A stretch of 64,000 bases of DNA from contig JBMOLN010000007.1 in assembly GCA_049325475.1 (NCBI GenBank), positions 95,489-159,488 of the forward strand, written 5' to 3'. The position numbers were made by a program, and so were the translations under genes. The notes under the pieces are model-generated. The model did no database searches, was not told the origin of the DNA, and worked only from the letters and a program-made list of their open reading frames with translations. Shown piece after piece: positions 5,017 to 57,770 of the stretch. This DNA comes from Patescibacteria group bacterium. GTDB taxonomy: Bacteria > Patescibacteriota > Patescibacteriia > 2-12-FULL-60-25. The first letter of the stretch is position 1; each line of letters starts with the position of its first letter.

Positions 5017-5027
5017 ATCTTTAGATA

Positions 5028-5546
5028 TTACACTTTTAACGTTCGACGTTCGACGTTTCCGGTTTTATAATATTCATCAATTTTCTTTATAAGATCTTTA
5101 TACGATAATGTCACTAAATAAAAATCATGCACCGCATTCCAAGCCGAAATATTTTGTAATTTCGGACGCGGTATAATCATCCAATGAAGATGGCTCATTG
5201 ATCCGCCCGAATACGGCCCGATTTGCATGGTAATATTAAAAGATTTGGTTTTAAAAAGTTTAGCTAGAAGTTTTTTAGATGTTAAAAGAACCTTGGTAAA
5301 ATCCTCCCATTCTTCTTTATTTAAATGATCAAGCTCACAAACGTGCCTTTTGGGAATAATCATCAAATTTCCATCCATATAAGGATATTTACATGCCAAA
5401 ACACTCCAAAAATCGCTTCGCAATTGCTTGACCTCTTGGTCTTGCAAGGTATCGGCATCGCAAAAATCGCAAAAATCTTTCTTCTTCTTGCGGCTCCTGT
5501 AAATTGCGCGATTAGGTTCAAAAATCCTCATATATAGATAATGCAA
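5028..5546 (-). CDS. HIT-family nucleotide hydrolase/transferase-like protein
   Basis: GGSMSHLHWMIIP matches the histidine-triad region (HxHxM variant, third His replaced). Start codon is uncertain (M1 or M6). Confidence 0.6.
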   Translation of the reverse strand: MHYLYMRIFEPNRAIYRSRKKKKDFCDFCDADTLQDQEVKQLRSDFWSVLACKYPYMDGNLMIIPKRHVCELDHLNKEEWEDFTKVLLTSKKLLAKLFKTKSFNITMQIGPYSGGSMSHLHWMIIPRPKLQNISAWNAVHDFYLVTLSYKDLIKKIDEYYKTGNVERRTLKV

Positions 5547-11895: not shown

Positions 11896-12034
11896 TCCAC
11901 CTCCCATAAAAGACTATCCAAATTCTCTTGTCCGGTCAACTAAAAACCCCCTCAAGATTTCAAGGGGGCAAAATCCGCCTTCACGTAATGAAGACGTATA
12001 GACTTCCGACTTATAGACGTCCGACGTTTAGAAG

Positions 12035-12153
12035 TCCGTAGTCCGCAGTCCGCAGTCCGTAATCCGAATTCAGAGTTCAGAGTTTAGAGTTCAGAATTCC
12101 TAGTTCGTGGTTCGTAATTCGTGGTTCGTAGTTCGAATTTCAAATCCTCAATT
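12035..12153. repeat. phased heptanucleotide stutter array (17 units, TCNNNNT)
   Basis: TCCGTAG TCCGCAG TCCGCAG TCCGTAA TCCGAAT TCAGAGT TCAGAGT TTAGAGT TCAGAAT TCCTAGT TCGTGGT TCGTAAT TCGTGGT TCGTAGT TCGAATT TCAAATC CTCAATT. The last units encode the C-terminus and stop of the ABC exporter. Confidence 0.9.
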
Positions 12154-14041
12154 CCTGCTTGTCCGCAAGTGCGCGGAATGTTGGAGAAAGTTCATAAAGT
12201 TCGGCAAAGGAATACGCTACGGCTTCAATTTGCGGTTCGCCGTTTTGTAATTTATTGGCGGGCTTGAGTACAATAAACTTGTCGCAAATGCGCCGCACCG
12301 TGCTAAGACGATGCGCAATCACAAGCGCACCCTGATCTCCGGCAAGCGCCAGCTCCAAGCCCTGCTGCACTTCCCACTCCGTGAGTGAGTCCAAGTTGCT
12401 CGTTGCTTCATCAATTACCAGAAAATCTGGATTCTTGATCATGGCCGCGCCAATCATAACGCGCTGTTTCTCACCGCCCGAAAGCTGCAAGCCGTCTTTG
12501 CCAACCTTGGTTTCGAGCCCATGAGTGAGCCTGTCTTCAAAGTCAATCTTATACCGCCGCATCAACTCCCATATCTCATCATCGGTAATCCGCGCACGCT
12601 CTTCTTCCGAAAGGCTATAGAGCAGATTGTAGCGCAAAGTATTGTTAAAAATCTGCGGATGCTGGGCAATATAACCAACATGCTTAAGCCAGGAAGCCAG
12701 CTTTACATCACGCAAATCATAACCGTTCACACTAATCGATCCGTATTGCGGATCCATATGCCGTAGAAGCAAGCGCATCAGCGTGGTCTTGCCCGAACCG
12801 GAAACGCCCAGCAGTGCGACCTTTTCTCCGGGTTCGATGGTAAATCCTACATTGCGCAAAACCGGCCGTGGATCTTTTTTTACATCATCGGTCTCTTCAT
12901 CGTCATCTTCATCAGGTTCCTGACCCGGATATGTATGCGAGATTTGAGAGAACTCCACGCAAAATTCCTTTGCGCCGTTCAAATCTTTTGCATCCGATTT
13001 TTCCACTACATCGGGCTCGATCTTCAGAGCTTCGCTCAACGATTTTACGGACGGCATGTTGAAATTGAAATGTCTTTCAATTTCACTCACGCGCCACATA
13101 TTATCCGCCAACTTTTGCACCCAGGCAAACAGCGGAAACAACAAACCCATGTTCCAGTTGCCTTGCCAGACATTCCACACGCCATAACCCATAATCACGA
13201 TCGTGAATATATTCGTAATCAACGAACGGCTTGAAATCTGACCTATGTACCACAGCCAAAACCATCTGTCCCGCACCAGCAATGCTGATGAATCTTTCCT
13301 ATGCACCTTGATTTCGGGTTTTTGCTTGGCATTTACGGCCACTCGCTCATACTTGTCGATGCGTTCCGTGAAAAACTTGTTTATACGCCGGAATTCTTTA
13401 TCAATCGGCAAGCATGCTTCAATGGTCCGCCTGTTCAAAAACAGCGACCAAAGAAAATGCATTGCCAGCATTCCGGTAGCCAACAATCCGGCAACACCGC
13501 TTAGCATGAACAATAAAAACCACGCCAGTGCAAGATTAAGAAACACGGCATAGCCATCGAACAACAGGGTGGTTTCCATTTCACTGGCCTTCCAGCGGCC
13601 TTTGTCGATATTGGAAACACCCAATTCCGAAGCATGCTGAATATGCTGCCCGGCAGACTTTTGGAACATGCGCTTTAGAATGCTCTGATCCCAATTCACC
13701 ATGTGCTCACCTAACAAGTATTCGCGCGATCTGAAGTGTAGCCACATAAACAGTATGTTGACTGTGTAACAAAAAGCGAAAGCCGCAAACCCCTGCAATG
13801 CAAGAATTGCATTCCGATTCTGTATGCCGTCAAAGATATAACTAACCGCATACGGCGCCATGGTACTAAACAATATGGTAAATATTTCCAGCACCATAAA
13901 GCGCCTGAAATATTTTTTGGTCACGGGAGTCTGCTTTTCATCCCACACCCACTTAACCAATCGTGCGGTTTCCCGCATATCAAGCAAGTACTGCCAGATT
14001 GTTACCGGTGGTCTGCGTTTAACGTCCGCATCTTCGCTCAT
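12140..14041 (-). CDS. ABC exporter, fused permease/ATPase (MsbA-type)
   Basis: Six-TM N-terminal half, Walker A GVSGSGKTT, signature LSGGEKQRV, Walker B FLVIDEATSNLD. Acidic insert EPDEDDDEETDD lies just before the NBD. Confidence 0.9.
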   Translation of the reverse strand: MSEDADVKRRPPVTIWQYLLDMRETARLVKWVWDEKQTPVTKKYFRRFMVLEIFTILFSTMAPYAVSYIFDGIQNRNAILALQGFAAFAFCYTVNILFMWLHFRSREYLLGEHMVNWDQSILKRMFQKSAGQHIQHASELGVSNIDKGRWKASEMETTLLFDGYAVFLNLALAWFLLFMLSGVAGLLATGMLAMHFLWSLFLNRRTIEACLPIDKEFRRINKFFTERIDKYERVAVNAKQKPEIKVHRKDSSALLVRDRWFWLWYIGQISSRSLITNIFTIVIMGYGVWNVWQGNWNMGLLFPLFAWVQKLADNMWRVSEIERHFNFNMPSVKSLSEALKIEPDVVEKSDAKDLNGAKEFCVEFSQISHTYPGQEPDEDDDEETDDVKKDPRPVLRNVGFTIEPGEKVALLGVSGSGKTTLMRLLLRHMDPQYGSISVNGYDLRDVKLASWLKHVGYIAQHPQIFNNTLRYNLLYSLSEEERARITDDEIWELMRRYKIDFEDRLTHGLETKVGKDGLQLSGGEKQRVMIGAAMIKNPDFLVIDEATSNLDSLTEWEVQQGLELALAGDQGALVIAHRLSTVRRICDKFIVLKPANKLQNGEPQIEAVAYSFAELYELSPTFRALADKQELRI

Positions 14042-15216: not shown

Positions 15217-18200
15217 CTATCGGCAAACATCTGAACCGGCTATATTGTTATTAAAGTAAGCGAACAAATTTACTCCGTTAATAAACTCTTCAATATTACT
15301 GCCGGTTACAGCTAATTCCAAATCATAATCACCTTCTTCCCAAAAAACATAAACCGCGCTTGGATTTTCATATTCCCTTGCAACCAGTCGCTTGCCATCT
15401 CTGTCTTGATCTCTGGAACTTACAGGTTCCTTCGCCCAAGAAGCTGTTCTGTCAGCAACAAACTCATCCAAACTCATGCCATAATCAGCCGCATGAACAG
15501 CAACTGTGATATTGTCACCATAATAAACCGCATTTTCAAAATCATCAACAGGAGTCATCCTTTTCCAGTTTTTTGGATATCCAATCTGATAGCCCAATTC
15601 GCAATTCACATAAATCTGCATATCTGCCGACTCATCCCAAATAATCAACGGCGCATTTGTGGCGGGTTTAAATGTCTTAACAATTTCCTGCATATCCCTT
15701 ACAGCCTGTTCCGAAACATCGCTTGGCTGGATGCCGTTAAAGTAACTCCAAGCATAAACAAATTTCGCATCACGGCCAATCTCCTCATCCCAGCACAAAT
15801 CCAGTTCCTCACAATCTTTTCGCTCCCATTCCCAAGAATCATGTGTGTAAACATTTATTATCATCATTTTAAACCAACCCGACTTATCGGAATACTCAGA
15901 ATCTTCTTTTGTCGGCAGATAAAACTGTGCAACCGCAACAACATTCTCGCCATCAACCCCCGAAGTCTCCGCCGTATAACCCTTCCAGCTTGGAGTCAAT
16001 GTTAACTCATAACCATATTCACTATCTTTATAACTCAACGAAACCTCCCCGCTCTCCGATACAACTTCCTCTGTTTTTTTATTATTCGATGTTCGAGATT
16101 CGTTAACCAGATCATCATTATTAAACGTTTGACGTTCGACGTTTGAGGCCACGGCTCTGTAATCATTTCCAACTTCTTTTTGCTCGCCGGTGTATCTTCC
16201 TGCGACAATCAATAAAAACAGCAATCCCGCTATCAATGTTAAAATCAATACGGCAATACCCAAAGTTTTTTTATCCTTTTTACGAAGTTTGATAAAAAAC
16301 ACAATGCCTCCAATAAACAAACTAAGCGCCAAAACAAGCATCAATATAGACCAGCCATCAAAAACCGGCTCAAACATAAGCGGAGGAAACTCCTTTAAAA
16401 AAACTTCTCCTCCCAAACCGGGCACATTCTCTTCCGGATACAATCCTGACGCAACATCTGTTAAATAATCAACCGAACTATTTGCCGCTCCCTTCTCGCG
16501 GAGCTTAGGCTCTATTATTTTATCATCGATTGTCAGAGCGGCTTGTAATTTTTCAGAATCCAATTCAAGCACAAGATCCGAACCTTGTTTTACATCAATA
16601 TTTTTATATTCATAAATTTCAAACTCTCCGCTATCCGTGGGGTAGGATGTCATTACACTCGCCTTCCCGCTGTCAATTCCCGCCGCCTTAACTTCATACT
16701 TGCCATCCTTCGGCATCATAAAATATGAAATAACCTCATTATCCGCAAAAGCTCTGACTTCCGGATAAACAGCTGAATCCTCAACAACGAAATTGCCTTC
16801 CGCGTCATAACCAACTCTTGCACCCGTATCTTTATTTATAATCATTACATTAAATGGACACTGTACCACAACCCTGACTTTATCGCGCGCATCAAATGCC
16901 ATCATGCGCTCTACCATGTATTTCATCTGCGCGTCACGAACATCCTTATAGGCTCTTTCCGCAATACTGGCGTTGATTTTGTCCTTTATATTCTGATCCA
17001 AATTATTAAAATATTGTTGTTCCGCGCTGGTCAGTTTGAGTTCCGGCCTTTGGACTCTTTGGTACACGCCTCCGCATAACGGATAAAACGGCGGATCACA
17101 CTGAAAACCGTGCGCCTGCCCATCCACCATATCCTCCCAATCGGAAATTCCGTAAATACCATGACTGTTCATCAACCATAAATCAAAAATCTTGGCCGCA
17201 TCGCTCCAAAGCGTTCCCTTTTCATAAACCGCTACCGCAAGATGCCCGGCCAGCGTATTCAGCACAGGCGGGGCCAAAACTTCAATCGGTCCGTAATCAT
17301 AATATTTTTCGATGATGGATCTTTCCGTAGCGTCTTTACTCAACCGCAAACGATCCAGCATATTGATTACGCGTGTCTGCTGTGATCCGCAAACCCAAGG
17401 CTCGTATTGTTCTTTTAACCTTCTCGCATAATCCAGACTTGCCTGATTAGATGAAAAAGTCTCAATAGCCATAGCTTTTAACACGCGATTATTAGTGGGA
17501 CAGCTCGCGCACCAAACACCTTGCCGAGCGTATGGATTTAACGGAATCTCATTATATTTTTTAACAATATATTCGTAAGCTTCCTGCTTGGACAAATCTC
17601 GCGCGCAATCCTCCGGACAATTTGCATGCGTCTCCCCCGGTTGGCACATCCAATTCCCGCACCAAATGCTGAATCCCGGAGTAAGCGTGATTCGCGCTTG
17701 CGGATTTCCATTTGCATTTACAGCCTGTAAAACCAAAGTCGATGTTACAAAGTCCCTCGGCTGTTCTGTCGTTGTATAAGTTAACTTTACCTGGCCTTTT
17801 GCATCAGTCTCGGCAGACAATTGCTTAACCGCCCCTTCTTTATCATCATCAATTTTACTTCTCTCATCTTGCAAGCGATAAGAAACTTCCTGGCCCGCAA
17901 GCGGATTTCCGGCCTGCATAACAGTTACAACAAAATCCATTGATGTTTTCCCGTCTGCAACCATTTCAACATCTCTGGGAGAAATCGAAACATCGATATC
18001 CGATCCGCACCGTGCCTCGCAAGATCCCCCGCAATCAACCCCATCTTCATCGCCATTTTGCACTCCATCAAAACAATTCGGTTCAGGTGCGGCAACATCG
18101 CTAACTTCGATCGCTTCGCAGCACTCCCTGATAACCCGGCTTGGACTTAGCAATGCATTCTCCTCAGCACGAGAGACATCCCCGCATTCATTCTTACAAT

Positions 18201-18663
18201 CAAGCATCACTTTTTCGATATCATTCGGTCTGCTTATATAACCATTGTCACAATCCGAACTCCTCCCGGCTGCGGCGGTTGCCGCTTCACAAGTCTCCGT
18301 GCAGTTTCGAATACAATTACCGGCCTTATGCCAGCCTTGATCGGGTGCGAGATAATAATCCCTCCTGCCCTTTAAAGCAGCATCTCTCTTTTCTACGCAG
18401 ACAATGGCATCGGCTTTTGCCGCATCATCAAACTTACTGATATCAACCCACTCGCCGCAAGGAGCCCAAGGCTCTTTATCGTTCCACTGACTGTATAAAA
18501 TTTTCGGATCAAAATCATCCTCTGTAGCCAACGGCTGCGCATTGGAATCTTTGGAAACCGATAAAAACAGCAGTACCGATAAACCTGCGAAAAATAAACT
18601 AAATAAAAATCCCGCAACCATCGGGTAAAAGTTTAGATTCTGTGATATTTTCTTTTTTGGCAT
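15217..18663 (-). CDS. large Cys-rich surface/membrane protein with Ig-like domain
   Basis: 1148 aa. N-terminal TM/signal, a Cys-rich region, a Big_1-like segment (VSISPRDVEMVADGKTSMDFVVTV..), two central TM helices and a duplicated C-terminal domain. Confidence 0.8.
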   Translation of the reverse strand: MPKKKISQNLNFYPMVAGFLFSLFFAGLSVLLFLSVSKDSNAQPLATEDDFDPKILYSQWNDKEPWAPCGEWVDISKFDDAAKADAIVCVEKRDAALKGRRDYYLAPDQGWHKAGNCIRNCTETCEAATAAAGRSSDCDNGYISRPNDIEKVMLDCKNECGDVSRAEENALLSPSRVIRECCEAIEVSDVAAPEPNCFDGVQNGDEDGVDCGGSCEARCGSDIDVSISPRDVEMVADGKTSMDFVVTVMQAGNPLAGQEVSYRLQDERSKIDDDKEGAVKQLSAETDAKGQVKLTYTTTEQPRDFVTSTLVLQAVNANGNPQARITLTPGFSIWCGNWMCQPGETHANCPEDCARDLSKQEAYEYIVKKYNEIPLNPYARQGVWCASCPTNNRVLKAMAIETFSSNQASLDYARRLKEQYEPWVCGSQQTRVINMLDRLRLSKDATERSIIEKYYDYGPIEVLAPPVLNTLAGHLAVAVYEKGTLWSDAAKIFDLWLMNSHGIYGISDWEDMVDGQAHGFQCDPPFYPLCGGVYQRVQRPELKLTSAEQQYFNNLDQNIKDKINASIAERAYKDVRDAQMKYMVERMMAFDARDKVRVVVQCPFNVMIINKDTGARVGYDAEGNFVVEDSAVYPEVRAFADNEVISYFMMPKDGKYEVKAAGIDSGKASVMTSYPTDSGEFEIYEYKNIDVKQGSDLVLELDSEKLQAALTIDDKIIEPKLREKGAANSSVDYLTDVASGLYPEENVPGLGGEVFLKEFPPLMFEPVFDGWSILMLVLALSLFIGGIVFFIKLRKKDKKTLGIAVLILTLIAGLLFLLIVAGRYTGEQKEVGNDYRAVASNVERQTFNNDDLVNESRTSNNKKTEEVVSESGEVSLSYKDSEYGYELTLTPSWKGYTAETSGVDGENVVAVAQFYLPTKEDSEYSDKSGWFKMMIINVYTHDSWEWERKDCEELDLCWDEEIGRDAKFVYAWSYFNGIQPSDVSEQAVRDMQEIVKTFKPATNAPLIIWDESADMQIYVNCELGYQIGYPKNWKRMTPVDDFENAVYYGDNITVAVHAADYGMSLDEFVADRTASWAKEPVSSRDQDRDGKRLVAREYENPSAVYVFWEEGDYDLELAVTGSNIEEFINGVNLFAYFNNNIAGSDVCR

Positions 18664-22473: not shown

Positions 22474-22510
22474 ATTTAACTAAAATATTTAATGCAACTC
22501 TTGTTATTTG

Positions 22511-23053
22511 CTATTTGCTATTGTCTATTAATGAAGCAAACCTCTCCCTCAACTTACTAAGTTTCGGAATAATTATGGCCTGACAATATGCTTTGTCGGG
22601 ATTTTTTTTATAATAATCTTTATGATAATCCTCAGCTTCATAAAAATCCGCCAAAGGTTCCACCGCAGTCACAATCGGATTATCAAATAAATTTTGCTCT
22701 TCCAAATCCTTGATAAATGCTTCGGACTTTTGCTTCTGATCTTCATCAGTACACAAAATGATAGACCGGTATTGCTCGCCAACATCATTGCCTTGACGAT
22801 TTATTGTTGTCGGATCATGCATTGCAAAAAATACACTCAGCAAATCCTCGAAAGAGATAACTTGCGGATCATATTCCACCCTGACAACCTCCGCATGTCC
22901 CGTATCTCCACCACAAACCTGCTCATAACTTGGATTTGCAACAGTTCCGCCCGCATATCCGGGAGTCACAGCAACAACTCCTCGTAACTGTTTAAACACA
23001 GCCTCGCTGCACCAAAAACAACCCGAACCAAAAACGACTATTTTATTTTTCAT
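22511..23053 (-). CDS. msrA: peptide-methionine (S)-S-oxide reductase
   Basis: GSGCFWCSEAVF active-site motif and GHAEVV. 180 aa. Confidence 0.9.
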   Translation of the reverse strand: MKNKIVVFGSGCFWCSEAVFKQLRGVVAVTPGYAGGTVANPSYEQVCGGDTGHAEVVRVEYDPQVISFEDLLSVFFAMHDPTTINRQGNDVGEQYRSIILCTDEDQKQKSEAFIKDLEEQNLFDNPIVTAVEPLADFYEAEDYHKDYYKKNPDKAYCQAIIIPKLSKLRERFASLIDNSK

Positions 23054-27750: not shown

Positions 27751-27897
27751 AGATATTTCTTGCCTATTTATACGCAAAAAACTTATTCTTCTTTCACAAC
27801 TCTGTCAAGAGCAGACGCTAGACGCTGGACTCTGGACACTAAACTAAAGTACTCAATGCTCCGTGCTCCGTGCTCCGCGCTTGAATCCTCCGAAGCT

Positions 27898-28983
27898 TCA
27901 TGCAAAGGAGGACGTGCTCCGTGCTAAAAAATAGATACAATATACCAAATACAAAATACCTGTAGTGAAGTAAATAAAAAGATTCGCCCACCAAATATCT
28001 TTGATCGATAGCTGACCGCGGCTTCCCCCAACTTTGGGAATGCAAATCCTGCTCCCGTCTTGCGCAAAACAATCACCTCCAAGCTCGATATCCCGCGCTC
28101 CGGCAAATGTCACAATCGGAATCCCGCCATTTGGCGATGGTCCTTTTTGCGCGTCTCTCCTCCAAGCTTTTATCGCCAAAAACGGATGTTGTTTGGTGAA
28201 AAATGCTGCAGCGGCTATGAGCGCTCCGGTAATCCGTGCCGGTATCCAATTCACAACATCATCGGCCTTGGCCGAAAACCAACCGAAATCACGATACTTT
28301 TCATTTTTATAACCCACCATTGAATCCAAAGTATTTATCGCTTTATAGGTTAGCGCCAACGGCCCTCCGCCGATCATGGCAAAAAATAACGGCGCAATAA
28401 TTCCATCTGACAAATTTTCTGTCAATGTCTCAATCGTTCCGCGGATTATTCCTTGTTCATCTTCACGTGAGCAATCGCGGCTGACGACTGTCTGCAAACG
28501 ATTTCTGGCCGCTTGCAAATCTCCACGGCGCAGCAGACCTACAATCACCCGCCCTTCTGCTGTCAGCGACCTTATAGCTAAGGCATAAAATATCATAATT
28601 ACATTTACCGCCACGCCAAGTCTCCAATCAATAATTATGCTAATGATATAAATCGCACTTGTAATAATCAGTGTCACATCAACAACAACCAACCATAAAA
28701 TAATCCCTGCGGCTTTCAGCTTACGAGCCGTATCTGTGTATCGTGTATCGTGTATCTTGTATCTTGTATCCTGCATCGTCTGACGTTCAGCTGAAGGTTC
28801 GACGTTTCGCGTTTCACGTTTCGCGATTTGCACTTCCTTCTGTCCTTCAACCTTTGTCCTTAATCCTTTTTCAATAAATGAAATAAACGCCCCCATCCAC
28901 CTAACCGGATGCGGAAGCCATTTTGGATCGCCCAGAATCAAATCCAAAGCAATTGCCAGCAATATTAAGTAAATATCTGCCAT
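27898..28983 (-). CDS. cbiB: adenosylcobinamide-phosphate synthase (CbiB/CobD family) with in-frame repeat insertion
   Basis: ILGDPKWLPHPVRWMG N-terminal signature and polytopic layout. About 40 extra residues after the first conserved loop are encoded by a heptad stutter array. Confidence 0.8.
   Translation of the reverse strand: MADIYLILLAIALDLILGDPKWLPHPVRWMGAFISFIEKGLRTKVEGQKEVQIAKRETRNVEPSAERQTMQDTRYKIHDTRYTDTARKLKAAGIILWLVVVDVTLIITSAIYIISIIIDWRLGVAVNVIMIFYALAIRSLTAEGRVIVGLLRRGDLQAARNRLQTVVSRDCSREDEQGIIRGTIETLTENLSDGIIAPLFFAMIGGGPLALTYKAINTLDSMVGYKNEKYRDFGWFSAKADDVVNWIPARITGALIAAAAFFTKQHPFLAIKAWRRDAQKGPSPNGGIPIVTFAGARDIELGGDCFAQDGSRICIPKVGGSRGQLSIKDIWWANLFIYFTTGILYLVYCIYFLARSTSSFA
28730..28828. 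repeat. phased heptanucleotide stutter array inside the cbiB coding sequence (14 units)
   Basis: GTATCTG TGTATCG TGTATCG TGTATCT TGTATCT TGTATCC TGCATCG TCTGACG TTCAGCT GAAGGTT CGACGTT TCGCGTT TCACGTT TCGCGAT. Translated in frame on the minus strand, including DTRYKIH/DTRYTDT. Confidence 0.85.
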
Positions 28984-29040: not shown

Positions 29041-29778
29041 ATGCATCATGTAAAGCGCAAACCCGACTTTACTATGCTAAGTTTTGCCAAACCGATTTCC
29101 TGCTTAAGCTGGGCGCCCCTTGGCGGCGGCAGACGCAACGGAATTCGTTTTGTGGTCAATCGCACCTTGCCAAAAAATGATCTGCGGCCCTTGCCGGTTC
29201 TTCAAGCCGACACCGAACAATTCATCGCCGAACGCGGCATGAGGTTGCCCGAAACCGTGGCCATGCTCACCACCGCCTCACAAAAGTTTCTCGGCTGTTC
29301 CATTGCTCGCAACAACAAAGGCTTGCTCATGGTCGCACTTTGCACCGTGGGCTTGGGCAATGCCGTAGCTCCCGGAGATCACGCAGCCTATGATGAAGAA
29401 CGCGGGCAAACCCCGTCCTCATCCGGCACCATCAATATCATTTTGACCTTAAACCGCAACTTGACCGAAAACGCCGCACTCGAGCTCATGCATACCATGG
29501 CCATGGCCAAAGCTTCAATCATGGTCGAACTCGGTCTTGTAAACCGGCACGGTCAACTAAAGCTGGCCACGGGCACGGATTGCCAGGTCCTCTGCTGGGA
29601 CCAAGATCATGAAATCACTTTGGCATACGCCGGCATGCACACCCGGCTCGCCGAACTGGCCGCCGGGGCAGTCCGCAAAGCCATGCTCGAATCCATGGCC
29701 AAGCGCCTCGGCGCTGAATATTCCAACGATTCCGAGCTGCTCCGGCTGGCTCGCTCTCGCTTTACCGCTACCCGTTAG
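29041..29778 (+). CDS. adenosylcobinamide amidohydrolase-like protein (CbiZ-like)
   Basis: Divergent from cbiB. LSWAPLGGG resembles the CbiZ N-terminal motif. The assignment rests partly on context. Confidence 0.5.
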   Translation: MHHVKRKPDFTMLSFAKPISCLSWAPLGGGRRNGIRFVVNRTLPKNDLRPLPVLQADTEQFIAERGMRLPETVAMLTTASQKFLGCSIARNNKGLLMVALCTVGLGNAVAPGDHAAYDEERGQTPSSSGTINIILTLNRNLTENAALELMHTMAMAKASIMVELGLVNRHGQLKLATGTDCQVLCWDQDHEITLAYAGMHTRLAELAAGAVRKAMLESMAKRLGAEYSNDSELLRLARSRFTATR

Positions 29779-29911: not shown

Positions 29912-29922
29912 GGTAATCGGAT

Positions 29923-30006
29923 GCTAGTCGCTAGATACTAGATGCTAGTAGCTAAATTCCAAATACCAAATACAAATATTGAATTGCTAATTGCTAATTG
30001 CTAATT
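29923..30006. repeat. phased heptanucleotide stutter array (12 units)
   Basis: GCTAGTC GCTAGAT ACTAGAT GCTAGTA GCTAAAT TCCAAAT ACCAAAT ACAAATA TTGAATT GCTAATT GCTAATT GCTAATT. Confidence 0.9.
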
Positions 30007-30021
30007 TATAATGTATATAGT

Positions 30022-31593
30022 ATGAAAAGTTTCGCACTTTGTTTAATGATCGCCGGCGGTCTTTTTATTTTTGCCAACAATGCTCAAGCTGCAGCCGATG
30101 CTTGCAACAATCCCTACATGTCGCTTAAGCAAGGTGACGAAATCCATTATCAAAGCGATGATACAAACCGCAGTTTTCAAATCCTTGTAGGTGATTCCGA
30201 AAAAGGAAAAACTACAATAAATTATCAATTCCCCAATTCATCACTAACCCAAAACATTTCTTGCCAGGATAAAACTGTTTTAGCCGGCAACTTTGTCGAC
30301 ACTTCCGCAAAAGACCTGGCTTTAACTGCTCAAGAAGTAACCGGTTCATTTCTCCCGGGTGATGTCCAACTCGGTTCCAGCTGGAGTACCAACTACAAAG
30401 CTTCTCAAAATATTGATAACAAAGAAGTCCTTTATACTATTCAAATTGATCACTGCGCCATAGCCGAATCCAGAATCAAGGTCCCGGCCGGCACTTATGA
30501 TACTTTAAAAATCCGCCTCACCGGCACAATCTCTTCAGATAATCCGGATGCGCCCACCCAAACCATCCGCCAAGATCTTTACTTTGCCAAAGGCATTGGC
30601 CTCATCAAAATCGTAGATAAAAGCAACAACCAAAACATCGAAACCGTAGCAACATATATCAACGTGGGTGACTGGAAGGAAACCGCCGCCAACATTGCCG
30701 CGCCAACCGCTGTTGGATTAGCCGCAGCCAACACAGCCATCGCCACACAAGGAATTCTCTCCGTAGACCTCGGCCGCTATCTTTGGTTTTTCATCACTGA
30801 ACCGCTTTTATTCTTCAGACGCCGCAAGCGCCGCGCTTGGGGCACGGTCTATAATGCTCTAACCCGCATTCCCGAAGATCTGGTTATTGTCCGTGTCAAA
30901 AATAAAAGCGGTAAATCGGTTTACACTCAAGTCACAGACAAAGAAGGTCGATATTCATTTTTAGTCCCCGAAGGCGAATACAAACTCGAAGCCAAAAAGA
31001 CCGGCTTCAGTTTTCCCACAAATCTGGCTAAAACTAAAAAACAAGATGCGCAATTCTTGGATATTTACCACGGAGAAACCATTAAAGTCGGTAAAAACGG
31101 AAAAGTCATTACCAGCAACATCCCTATTGATCCGGTTAAAAAAGATGATAAAGATAATGAAATTATTAAAAAAGATTATTGGCATACAACTCAAGAATGG
31201 ACTGCCTTAGCCGGCCCGGTCGTCGGCATTGTGGCTTTTATTCTCAATCCATCTTTAATGATTGGTATCGCACTCGTCATCGGACTGTTTATTTATCTTT
31301 TCTTCCGCCGCTTCGCCATGAGCCTCACCCCCAAACAATGGGGCACTGTCCGCGATGACATTGCCAAAATCCCCGGTTCCGTAGTCAGAGTTTTTATTAT
31401 GCCGTACAACAAACTCGCCGAATACGTTGTCACGGATTCCAAAGGCCGCTTTCATCTGCGTGTCGGCCAATGCGAGTATTACTTAACCGCTACCAAAGCC
31501 GGCTACAAACCCCTTAAGACTAAAAACTTCAACATCTCCAAAGCCAAAGAACCAAAAGTGATTACAGAAAGCTTGAAGCTGGAGAAGGTGTAA
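30022..31593 (+). CDS. membrane protein with two carboxypeptidase-regulatory-like domains
   Basis: Signal peptide MKSFALCLMIAGGLFIFANNAQA. Two VTD(K/S)(E/K)GR(Y/F)..(V/L)..GEY.L.A.K.G(F/Y) modules separated by TM helices. Confidence 0.7.
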   Translation: MKSFALCLMIAGGLFIFANNAQAAADACNNPYMSLKQGDEIHYQSDDTNRSFQILVGDSEKGKTTINYQFPNSSLTQNISCQDKTVLAGNFVDTSAKDLALTAQEVTGSFLPGDVQLGSSWSTNYKASQNIDNKEVLYTIQIDHCAIAESRIKVPAGTYDTLKIRLTGTISSDNPDAPTQTIRQDLYFAKGIGLIKIVDKSNNQNIETVATYINVGDWKETAANIAAPTAVGLAAANTAIATQGILSVDLGRYLWFFITEPLLFFRRRKRRAWGTVYNALTRIPEDLVIVRVKNKSGKSVYTQVTDKEGRYSFLVPEGEYKLEAKKTGFSFPTNLAKTKKQDAQFLDIYHGETIKVGKNGKVITSNIPIDPVKKDDKDNEIIKKDYWHTTQEWTALAGPVVGIVAFILNPSLMIGIALVIGLFIYLFFRRFAMSLTPKQWGTVRDDIAKIPGSVVRVFIMPYNKLAEYVVTDSKGRFHLRVGQCEYYLTATKAGYKPLKTKNFNISKAKEPKVITESLKLEKV

Positions 31594-37835: not shown

Positions 37836-37910
37836 GGTGGCCATGGTGAAGCGGTATCACAGCAGATTGTGGCTCTGCTATCACGGGTTCAACTCCCGTT
37901 GGCCACCCCA
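37836..37910 (+). tRNA. tRNA-His (GTG), with encoded G-1 and CCA
   Basis: Hand-folded cloverleaf. Acceptor GTGGCCA/TGGCCAC, D stem GTGA/TCAC, anticodon stem GCAGA/TCTGC with loop TTGTGGC, T arm ACGGG-TTCAACT-CCCGT. The extra 5' G pairs with discriminator C. 3' CCA is encoded. Confidence 0.9.
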
Positions 37911-39990: not shown

Positions 39991-40221
39991 AAATTTATTA
40001 AATTAGCAGTTAGAAATTATTAATTAGCAATAAATTAGTTATTTAGAGTCATTTCTAATTGCCAATTGCTATTTGCTAATTAACTATATTGAATATATAC
40101 CCATAACTATATTTTGTCAAATAATCCAAAAACCCCGAGATCTCCCCGGGGTTAATAATAATTCGCAAAGCGACTCCAGCATTTTTAATTCTTAATTTAA
40201 AAAAGCCCTTATGGGCTTTTT

Positions 40222-57000: not shown

Positions 57001-57112
57001 TCGAATCTAGCTTCTAGAGTCTGACATTGTGTATCCTGTATCGTGTAACGTCTGACGTTTCGCGCTATACGATTCGCGATGCGCGAACAGAGTTCTAGCG
57101 TCTAGCGTCTAT
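57001..57112. repeat. phased heptanucleotide stutter array (16 units) with the same word order as 187-305
   Basis: TCGAATC TAGCTTC TAGAGTC TGACATT GTGTATC CTGTATC GTGTAAC GTCTGAC GTTTCGC GCTATAC GATTCGC GATGCGC GAACAGA GTTCTAG CGTCTAG CGTCTAT. The last unit contains a stop codon. Confidence 0.85.
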
Positions 57113-57606
57113 TTAGCCAATAAGTAACTCTTTATCGCCTTTACAACTTTCGAATCTTCTTTCAAATCTTCAACAAAAAGAATATGCTCGCGATTAATAT
57201 ACATCCTATCCTCCGGACCATGTAATTCATTCCCTAACTTGATTATCTTTAAATCACCTTGGCCTTCAATAATTCCATTGGCCGAAGCCCTGTCTGTTTG
57301 CAAATAATAAATATTTTTCAACACCAGTTCTTCTTCGGTTTTTTCCGTTATCATTCCAAAATAAACTTGCCCGTTAGACAAAAACACAGCCTGATACTCG
57401 CCTTCATAAACAGCTTCATCCGCAACATCTGTTTTATCTTCTTGAGCTTCGCTGGCCGGCGTAATGGCTTTAAAAAACCCGAACGCCCCGATTAACAAAA
57501 TCGCCGCCGCCCCGGCTCCAAAAAAGAACAGCTTAAGATCTACCGCAGGTTTATGATCTTGATTTTCAATTTTCGGCTCTTGAGCCTCTATTTTTTTACT
57601 TGGCAT
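57109..57606 (-). CDS. membrane-anchored hypothetical protein
   Basis: 165 aa with a single TM (LFFFGAGAAAILLIGAFGFF). Immediately downstream of the giant gene. Confidence 0.6.
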   Translation of the reverse strand: MPSKKIEAQEPKIENQDHKPAVDLKLFFFGAGAAAILLIGAFGFFKAITPASEAQEDKTDVADEAVYEGEYQAVFLSNGQVYFGMITEKTEEELVLKNIYYLQTDRASANGIIEGQGDLKIIKLGNELHGPEDRMYINREHILFVEDLKEDSKVVKAIKSYLLAK

Positions 57607-57620
57607 ATAAATTTAACTAT

Positions 57621-57676
57621 CAGCTATCAGCTATCAGCTATCAGCTATCAGCTAACAGCTAACAGCTAACAGCTAA
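57621..57676. repeat. two-state heptanucleotide array: CAGCTAT x4 then CAGCTAA x4
   Basis: Exact units read directly, between the giant-gene stop and the next gene's start. Confidence 0.95.
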
Positions 57677-57770
57677 CCTTAGTATATCAAAAAAACAACC
57701 CCTTTCAAAGAGGCGCTCTTGTCATTGTCTCCCGGTCACTGGACTATGACTACGACTAAGTACTATGACA

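Follow-up and report, generated by a model that had tools for sequence, protein, structure and literature searches.

A heptanucleotide repeat array in the cbiB gene of a Patescibacteria group bacterium, probably translated within a permissive loop

Rickettsia palindromic elements (RPEs), dispersed palindromic repeats of ~100-150 nt, lie in frame in unrelated metabolic genes (Ogata et al. 2000, reviewed in PMC10969869) and, as outlined in that review, are translated as a segment of 35-50 aa that fits the host protein in both fold and function. In neuO of E. coli K1, the heptanucleotide AAGACTC forms a variable-number tandem repeat (the poly-psi motif) of 2-93 copies, in which three heptads encode RLKTQDS (PMC3046976). 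The TAACTGA heptamer direct repeats of marine Beggiatoaceae, some cyanobacteria, and Bacteroidetes and the STRR heptamers of cyanobacteria are mostly intergenic; a minority of the TAACTGA-type repeats lie within open reading frames (ORFs) in a stop-free orientation, and these repeats survive mainly where they are tolerated (PMC4679880). According to the summary given in the same article, in most of the prokaryotic genomes surveyed by Mrazek et al. (2007) the long simple sequence repeats (SSRs) with heptanucleotide units outnumber those of any other class, polymerase-footprint slippage has been proposed as their cause, and coding DNA rarely contains units whose length is not divisible by three (PMC4679880). 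The fast-evolving tandem DNA repeats of Borg elements have been described as creating intrinsically disordered protein regions (PMC9879509). Here, we describe an array of 7-nt words (heptads) inside cbiB, the gene for adenosylcobinamide-phosphate synthase, in a 64-kb stretch of the genome of a Patescibacteria group bacterium; this whole stretch is referred to as the window, and positions are given within it.

The core array comprises the 14 plus-strand words GTATCTG, TGTATCG, TGTATCG, TGTATCT, TGTATCT, TGTATCC, TGCATCG, TCTGACG, TTCAGCT, GAAGGTT, CGACGTT, TCGCGTT, TCACGTT, and TCGCGAT (28730-28828), with a single 1-nt phase slip at the first word; reading the strand in sevens recovered exactly the words quoted in an initial annotation of this DNA. 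Identity at a lag of 7 nt was 59/92 (0.64; binomial P = 1e-13), whereas lags of 6 and 8 nt gave 0.22 and 0.29, respectively. Tandem Repeats Finder detected period 7 both in the GTATC-word block (28730-28779, 7.0 copies, 88% matches) and in the TTCGCGT-word block (28798-28825, 3.9 copies, 85% matches). In the sense of the gene, the array reads AAGGACA, GAAGGAA, GTGCAAA, TCGCGAA, ACGTGAA, ACGCGAA, ACGTCGA, ACCTTCA, GCTGAAC, GTCAGAC, GATGCAG, GATACAA twice, and GATACAC three times, and the predicted translation of this stretch is EGQKEVQIAKRETRNVEPSAERQTMQDTRYKIHDTRYTDTARK. At least four word families are present (AAGGACA, CGCGAAA, the core CGTCAGACG, and GATACAx), unlike the single word per family of heptamer repeats, and the longest run of identical heptads is three, short of the long runs of contingency loci. 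Since 7 mod 3 = 1, successive copies of a tandem heptad fall in successive reading frames until all three have been used, and the 7-aa repeat visible in the predicted peptide corresponds to three heptads (21 nt), as initially annotated.

The gene that holds the array is intact, and its product is a bona fide member of the CobD/CbiB family. The protein matched Pfam PF03186 (CobD_Cbib) at 2.6e-89 (299.7 bits; cut-off, 34.4) and TIGR00380 at 227.3 bits (cut-off, 165.9), the latter match being broken in two stretches by the insert, and, in an alignment of 117 sequences, it retained the residues of each of the 30 invariant and 28 near-invariant columns. Both this family assignment and the in-frame loop of ~40 aa proposed in the initial annotation were borne out: alignments gave a net gain of ~41 stop-free codons over insert-free orthologs, located in the loop that connects the amphipathic PHPVRWMG helix with the second membrane helix, and we found no frameshift elsewhere in cbiB. 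The loop (residues 45-92 here) spans 7-8 residues in 93 of the 117 orthologs as opposed to 48 in the window CbiB, which identifies the segment as an insertion. The closest orthologs were 61-64% identical in BLASTP; the five closest insert-free relatives (61-63% identity) lack the segment, and in the insert-free proteins P0002, P0004, P0005, P0007, and P0008 the motif R-x-K-[VI]-x-x runs directly into L-K-x-A-G. A homologous loop sequence, which the annotation had named as the observation that would contradict an insertion, was not found in any ortholog. Neither insert junction showed terminal inverted repeats or a target-site duplication on inspection of the sequence, beyond a trivial AAG.

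The source is a metagenome-assembled genome (MAG), tandem repeats readily cause assembly errors, and the two available assemblies may share reads, so that a product of mis-assembled repeat-rich reads, or else a decaying gene, has to be considered. We regard this explanation as extremely improbable. The Logan assembly of run SRR32167788 was identical to the window (100%) across 21,086 nt, array included, so that two assemblers agree over 21 kb, and the array (~115 nt) is below typical read length. A protein identical to the window CbiB is present in NCBI, from a Patescibacteria group bacterium MAG (741-kb contig). The intact ORF, the full set of invariant residues, the confident fold, and the analogous in-frame arrays in unrelated assemblies described below also argue against an artefact or a pseudogene.

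AlphaFold2 modelling retained the polytopic helical fold of CbiB, with a predicted local distance difference test (pLDDT) score of 93.1 and a predicted template modelling score of 0.90. The pLDDT was 55-71 within the insert (~residues 51-80) and at least 86 in all other 10-residue blocks except the C-terminal residue, and the model prolonged the two flanking helices as a hairpin (H26-59 and H67-118). The initial annotation had raised the question of a disordered loop; the model gave the insert as helices at modest confidence, forming a hairpin rather than a coil. Neither a sequence search nor a fold search returned a solved CbiB structure. The peptide encoded by the insert has a grand average of hydropathy (GRAVY) of -1.77, and its sense strand is 65% purine. 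The loop should face the cytoplasm, because it is rich in Lys and Arg (positive-inside rule) and because two hydrophobic helices lie between it and the Arg-rich domain (~135-195).

A search of the window with the cbiB array (self excluded) gave 221-247 and 57028-57059 as the best BLAST matches, both on the same plus strand, with Smith-Waterman scores of 41 and 40, respectively, compared with 27 for the next-best site. These are the two intergenic sites at which the same word series had been annotated, and they lie within two homologous elements, A and C (Table 1). The word order of both elements is CTAG words, GTATC words, CGTCTGACG, TTCGCG words, GAGTTC, and CTAG words; element A has a lag-7 identity of 0.54, the identity between A and C was estimated as ~70% from an ungapped reading by eye, and a three-way MAFFT alignment of A, C, and the cbiB array had a mean column identity of 67%. 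An nhmmer profile built from A and C only detected the cbiB array at 28754-28818 (E = 4.4e-7), matching model positions 24-83 of 118. The 11-mer ATCGTCTGACG of the array occurs exactly at 237-247 and with one mismatch at 57047-57057, and the ordered series of GTATC words, CGTCTGACG, and TTCGCG words is present in the array on one strand. Because the profile also matched A and C on their own reverse strands (E = 6e-5 for element A), the two elements are dyad-symmetric. The array lacks the CTAG flanks and the symmetry of the whole element, retaining only a local quasi-palindrome at its centre (28777-28804), which has ~19 nt more than A and C in the form of an inverted copy of the core CGTCTGACG; it also has seven GTATC words versus three in A/C. 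Full-length A and C have stops in all six frames, whereas the cbiB array is open in three of six; the CTAG flanks would bring stop codons into the ORF. These comparisons indicate that the cbiB array is homologous to the stop-free core of the A/C element.

Pattern searches outside the window returned little. The word-series pattern GTATCNTGNATCNTGNANCGTCTGACG had no match in the genome contig collection, which apparently lacks the source genome as well, and neither the A/C core pattern nor a 25-mer flanking the cbiB array had a match in metagenome contigs. No second strain of the species was recovered in this collection or among the BLASTP matches. Eight viral-contig matches to the core pattern were without lag-7 periodicity and were judged to be due to chance. 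Elements A and C each fold as a hairpin over their whole length, that of C being a single long, imperfect one (-36.8 kcal/mol, z = -1.8). We rejected the possibility that the arrays are structured RNA or DNA hairpins, as the z-scores of A and C were only -0.65 and -1.8, respectively, and that of the cbiB copy was about 0 (RNA fold, z = -0.2).

Table 1. Positions of cbiB, its heptad array, and related features in the window
Feature	Position	Strand	Description
Element A	193-310	plus	Intergenic, ~118 nt, heptad-periodic, dyad-symmetric; just upstream of ORF 321-1496
Heptad arrays at and beyond the cbiB 3' end	27803-27925		GCACGGA words; CbiB C-terminal tail LARSTSSFA*, then 3' spacer 27857-27881
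cbiB (adenosylcobinamide-phosphate synthase)	27898-28983	minus	Intact ORF, 361 aa
Translated insert (predicted)	28720-28848	minus	Codons 46-88 (EGQKEV...TDTARK)
Core heptad array	28730-28828		14 heptads
GTATC-word block	28730-28779		Gene sense GATACAA x2, GATACAC x3; would encode DTRYKIH/DTRYTDT; one 8-nt unit inside
Quasi-palindromic centre	28777-28804		CGTCTGACGTTCAG / CTGAAGGTTCGACG; 11/14 positions complementary; read from the sequence
TTCGCGT-word block	28798-28825		Gene sense CGCGAAA/CGTGAAA; would encode AKRETRN
14-nt (two-heptad) tandem duplication	28836-28869		Tandem Repeats Finder: period 14, 2.4 copies, 85% matches
cbiZ (adenosylcobinamide amidohydrolase)	29041-29778	plus	Divergent partner of cbiB; PF01955 gene calls in L009, L003, L005
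Element C	57003-57115	plus	Intergenic homolog of element A

Heptad arrays are abundant in the window. We counted 29 lag-7 arrays; 20 local shuffles gave 0-3, and other lags gave 0-6. Intergenic identity at lags 7, 14, and 21 was 0.327, 0.305, and 0.296, respectively, against a baseline of ~0.265, whereas coding DNA had an identity of 0.263 at lag 7 and no such peaks. The window is 87% coding, yet most of the 29 arrays lay between genes or at their ends, and apart from one short array the cbiB array was alone in lying deep within a gene. The genomes of relatives were as rich in heptad arrays as the window, and two of four heptad words in each of L001 and L003 were shared with it, where ~0.1 would be expected.

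The shared vocabulary bears on the origin of the array, for which the initial annotation had an intergenic element entering cbiB. Of that claim, the kinship with A and C holds; however, the DNA present is limited to the core of the element (positions 24-83 of 118), and entry is a candidate route beside growth in place. The array might have grown wholly inside cbiB by repeated 7-nt slippage from native codons, its likeness to A and C then reflecting a word vocabulary common to the lineage, an account that differs from the one we favour in origin only. The 14-nt duplication at 28836-28869, which overlaps the conserved native GLRTKV codons at the proximal insert boundary and reads AAGGATT, AAGGACA, AAGGTTG, AAGGACA, and GAAGGAA in the sense of the gene, gives evidence of an apparent in-place stutter of native codons. 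Likewise, the AGAACAC array in the CbiB loops of L015 and L014 resembles multiplied native AGA-ACA codons, and the words held in common between genomes fit this account as well. We nevertheless consider growth entirely in place unlikely, because the three word families share one order and one strand around the same 11-mer at three sites, because the profile of A and C finds the array while A and C are its top two matches in the window, and because an ordered word series is not expected from local drift.

The same CbiB loop was found to contain independent heptad arrays in at least three further lineages, one of them in Nitrospirota; relatives at <=50% identity among the matches listed in genome contigs also served as a survey of the loop. 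In P0003 (L001), the loop contains nine (A/G)CGGAGC heptads (63 nt), translated as RGARSTE twice, and the sister protein P0006 (L003) has a decayed version of this array. P0077 (L008), a protein 42% identical to the window CbiB from a genome that is also rich in arrays, has four copies of GCAACGA, and the Nitrospirota loci L014 (3144-3176) and L015 (3136-3159) have AGAACAC arrays translated as (T)QNTEHR. The loops of P0003 and P0006 differ by exactly 7 aa (21 nt, three heptads), and those of L014 (QNTEHRTQNTEHR) and L015 (TQNTEHR) by one 7-aa unit; the 7-aa differences in these two analogous sister pairs mean that arrays inside the gene change by three-heptad steps and that repeat copy number varies between related genomes. 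In a neighbour-joining tree, P0003 and P0006 grouped together, and the window protein (P0001) fell outside a clade that also holds the insert-free P0004, P0005, P0007, and P0008. The tree and the different words used by the lineages indicate separate origins of the inserts, and on these grounds we rejected a single ancestral insertion shared with P0003 and P0006.

All four heptad inserts encode hydrophilic peptides (GRAVY -0.9 to -3.0), and the sense strand is purine-rich in three of them (0.65-0.75; 0.52 in L008), whereas their antisense strands would give peptides that range from neutral to strongly hydrophobic (GRAVY 0.0 to +2.7) and are often rich in Cys. Inserts that are not heptad arrays were also found in this loop, in L007, L019, L033, L039, and L050 among the matches listed. 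In L007 (P0063), whose genome lacks heptad arrays, a CCCCCCC...GGGGGG palindromic element lies in frame in the loop at ~5150-5215, with IPPLTKGGLGGILPLLKGDKGGF as its translation. The presence of such inserts in several lineages implies that the loop is generally permissive.

Recurrence in a single loop raises the possibility that the extension is adaptive, perhaps a docking arm to which partners in the proposed membrane-anchored cobamide assembly complex bind, with repeat DNA serving as raw material. Extensions recur in at least 10 lineages across several phyla, AlphaFold2 predicts a helical hairpin and not a coil, CbiB has been proposed as the anchor of a multienzyme complex (PMC8092220), and the activity of NeuO increases with the number of translated heptads (PMC3046976). 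However, the insert sequences are unrelated between lineages and range in length from 7 to >40 aa, 93 of the 117 orthologs keep the short loop, the insert sequence decays between P0003 and P0006, and model confidence within the insert is low, all of which makes an adaptive extension very unlikely in our view.

The three-heptad steps between sister lineages would also suit a phase-variable switch, in which slippage by one heptad in either direction toggles CbiB and corrinoid salvage in the manner of the AAGACTC repeat of neuO, where copy numbers in multiples of three are needed (PMC3046976); two to three perfect heptads do occur here in coding DNA (GATACAA twice, GATACAC three times). Against such a switch, the array is degenerate, with at most three identical copies compared with up to 93 in neuO, and the two assemblies agree in sequence, each with the array in frame. 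Four strain variants that diverge by 2-4% elsewhere share one unchanged P0006 insert, every lineage examined is in frame, and CbiB is a metabolic enzyme and not a surface or contingency function. The probability of switching therefore seems to us slight.

The account that we favour, and consider reasonably probable as a whole, is that a translated heptanucleotide array occupies a permissive loop of CbiB and that the insert is neutral. In this lineage, intergenic DNA is filled with arrays in which one 7-nt word drifts into the next, and one such array lies inside cbiB. The array may be a product of slippage or template switching during replication, of ectopic recombination with arrays between genes, or of both routes: the stutter of native codons at 28836-28869 may be a visible trace of 7-nt slippage, template switching may have made the central inverted copy, and recombination with intergenic arrays would account for the ordered series held in common with A and C. 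The ribosome would read through the array and add ~41 hydrophilic, charged residues, which would project from the first CbiB loop as a flexible or helical-hairpin arm and leave the catalytic fold intact. Selection for CbiB function would have removed variants that were out of frame, stop-bearing, or in the hydrophobic orientation. Surviving arrays would thus have a net length that is a multiple of three, reached by 21-nt (7-aa) steps or a compensating indel; words in which none of the three frames has a stop codon; and the purine-rich strand as sense, giving a hydrophilic peptide. Owing to the three-frame reading, a word of the CTAGAAT type cannot persist in an ORF, whereas GATACAA or CGCGAAA can. 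Most likely, the insert is a neutral passenger sequence in this permissive loop.

Several points weigh against this account. The similarity to A and C spans only ~60 nt, with the flanks lacking and with the additional central nucleotides and GTATC words noted above. AlphaFold2 gives helices at modest confidence in the insert, not clear disorder, and the cytoplasmic side of the loop is a prediction from the positive-inside rule and a count of two membrane helices. Translation of the array and neutrality of its product are both what we infer from the sequence. Finally, recurrence in one loop across two phyla could mean that extensions benefit the loop.

A broader alternative is that the arrays, rather than being passive debris of slippage, come from an active process, specific to some lineages of Patescibacteria and Nitrospirota, that time and again adds 7-aa-periodic segments to proteins. 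A polymerase or repair activity that steps by 7 nt could be responsible, or the arrays could be binding sites with a conserved vocabulary, and the same process would build promoters, inverted stems flanking genes, and dispersed palindromic elements. If so, the cbiB loop would be a visible case of the ongoing de novo creation of protein segments, or else a frameshift switch for corrinoid salvage that moves in 7-nt steps. We regard this alternative as doubtful.

The intergenic arrays have several further features. Entire spacers consist of consecutive heptad blocks in which the word shifts by 1-2 nt at a time (12011-12162, 27803-27892, 29918-30037, and 57593-57699), as in the drift from AGTCCGC to GAGTTCA to GTTCGTG, and many of the spacer words contain short palindromes such as CTAG, ACGT, TCGCGA, and CAGCTG. 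The words AAATAGC, AAGATAC, and ACGGAGC (canonical form) are common to related genomes above expectation, and the groundwater Nitrospirota loci L014, L015, and L017 have 1.0-1.3 lag-7 arrays per kb, matching Patescibacteria. The AATTGCT/TTGCTAT arrays (29982-30012, 22494-22539, and 40048-40100) present -35-like hexamers every 7 nt; at 29984-30012, TTGCTA, 17 nt, and TATAAT lie upstream of an ORF at 29998, and some of these arrays may be stuttered promoters. In three genomes, a small gene of the 23S_rRNA_IVP family (PF05635) is flanked by inverted arrays of CAAATAG words (22075-22105/22494-22530 in the window, 2696-2749/3153-3187 in L001, and 17502-17552/17830-17880 in L003), which could pair as a long stem around the gene. 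Our literature search, whose coverage was incomplete, found no published report of heptamer repeats in the Candidate Phyla Radiation, Parcubacteria, or Uhrbacteria; the abundance of drifting heptad arrays in this Patescibacteria clade and some Nitrospirota is apparently undescribed.

Heptad words also recur between proteins. The GCACGGA word of the CbiB C-terminal tail (27857-27925) also builds the loop insert RGARSTE of the orthologs P0003 and P0006. The word AACGTCG gives NVER(Q/R)T in three different window proteins: as the internal SNVERQTF (16112-16149) of a 1148-aa Big_1-like protein (ORF 15217-18663, minus strand), as the C-terminal tail GNVERRTLKV* (5019-5073) of a 172-aa protein (ORF 5028-5546, minus strand), and as RNVEPSAERQT in the cbiB insert (28800-28815).

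The cbiB gene is divergent from cbiZ, the start coordinate of which was taken from a 245-aa gene call in L009, and the divergent pair is also kept in relatives. Such a pairing would be expected in cobinamide salvage (Woodson and Escalante-Semerena 2004, as cited in PMC8092220), and the gene context backs the predicted CbiB reaction, in which adenosylcobyric acid (AdoCby) and aminopropanol phosphate would give adenosylcobinamide phosphate (AdoCbi-P). An Rfam scan of the window yielded a tRNA at 37837-37907 as the sole match, with no riboswitch and no family on the heptad arrays; in particular, the surroundings of cbiB and cbiZ yielded no cobalamin riboswitch.

This locus indicates that a conserved enzyme can incorporate repeat DNA even when the repeat unit is not divisible by three. 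It also illustrates the filters on survival: a length that is a multiple of 3 nt, words free of stops in three frames, and a purine-rich sense strand. The first CbiB loop emerges as a natural permissive site, useful for tag engineering in a membrane enzyme, and heptad arrays within genes should not necessarily be annotated as frameshifts or pseudogenes. A single insert would be a curiosity; the broader point is that arrays stepping by 21 nt recur in one permissive loop across two phyla.

RPEs are the closest functional precedent, being otherwise intergenic repeats found in frame within metabolic genes, as is the cbiB insert. In contrast to the cbiB array, however, RPEs are discrete units resembling miniature inverted-repeat transposable elements, with a conserved encoded peptide and without internal 7-nt periodicity; the cbiB array contains the element core only, in drifting heptads whose copy number would be slippage-driven, and its junctions showed neither a target-site duplication nor terminal inverted repeats. 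The closest mechanistic precedent is NeuO. Both repeats consist of heptads read in three frames, so that three heptads correspond to 7 aa (RLKTQDS and DTRYKIH, respectively), a full-length protein requires a frame-preserving length, and the peptide is unstructured and dispensable for catalysis, which for CbiB is a prediction. The neuO repeat differs in having one perfect word, an N-terminal position, high-frequency phase variation, and a role in tuning activity, whereas the cbiB array has multiple words, is degenerate, lies internally in the loop of a membrane protein, and shows no sign of switching.

The TAACTGA and STRR heptamers, which are likewise lineage-specific, abundant, and mostly intergenic, form the closest repeat class. 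They have one word per family, and within ORFs they lie mostly at protein termini or in hypothetical proteins; the window arrays comprise many word families in fixed order, some of them forming dyad-symmetric dispersed elements, and the cbiB array lies deep inside a conserved enzyme. The survey of Mrazek et al., as far as its published summary indicates, was without Patescibacteria, and the window arrays are imperfect, drifting series and not pure SSRs. Borg repeats, as described in outline, resemble the cbiB array in that new hydrophilic or disordered protein segments come from tandem DNA repeats. The Borg repeats inside ORFs reportedly have unit lengths divisible by three, whereas the 7-nt unit of the cbiB array means that only every third copy restores the frame. 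The cbiB case is thus a further example of a known phenomenon, distinct as a multi-word, drifting array with dispersed-element kin that lies deep in a membrane enzyme of Patescibacteria.

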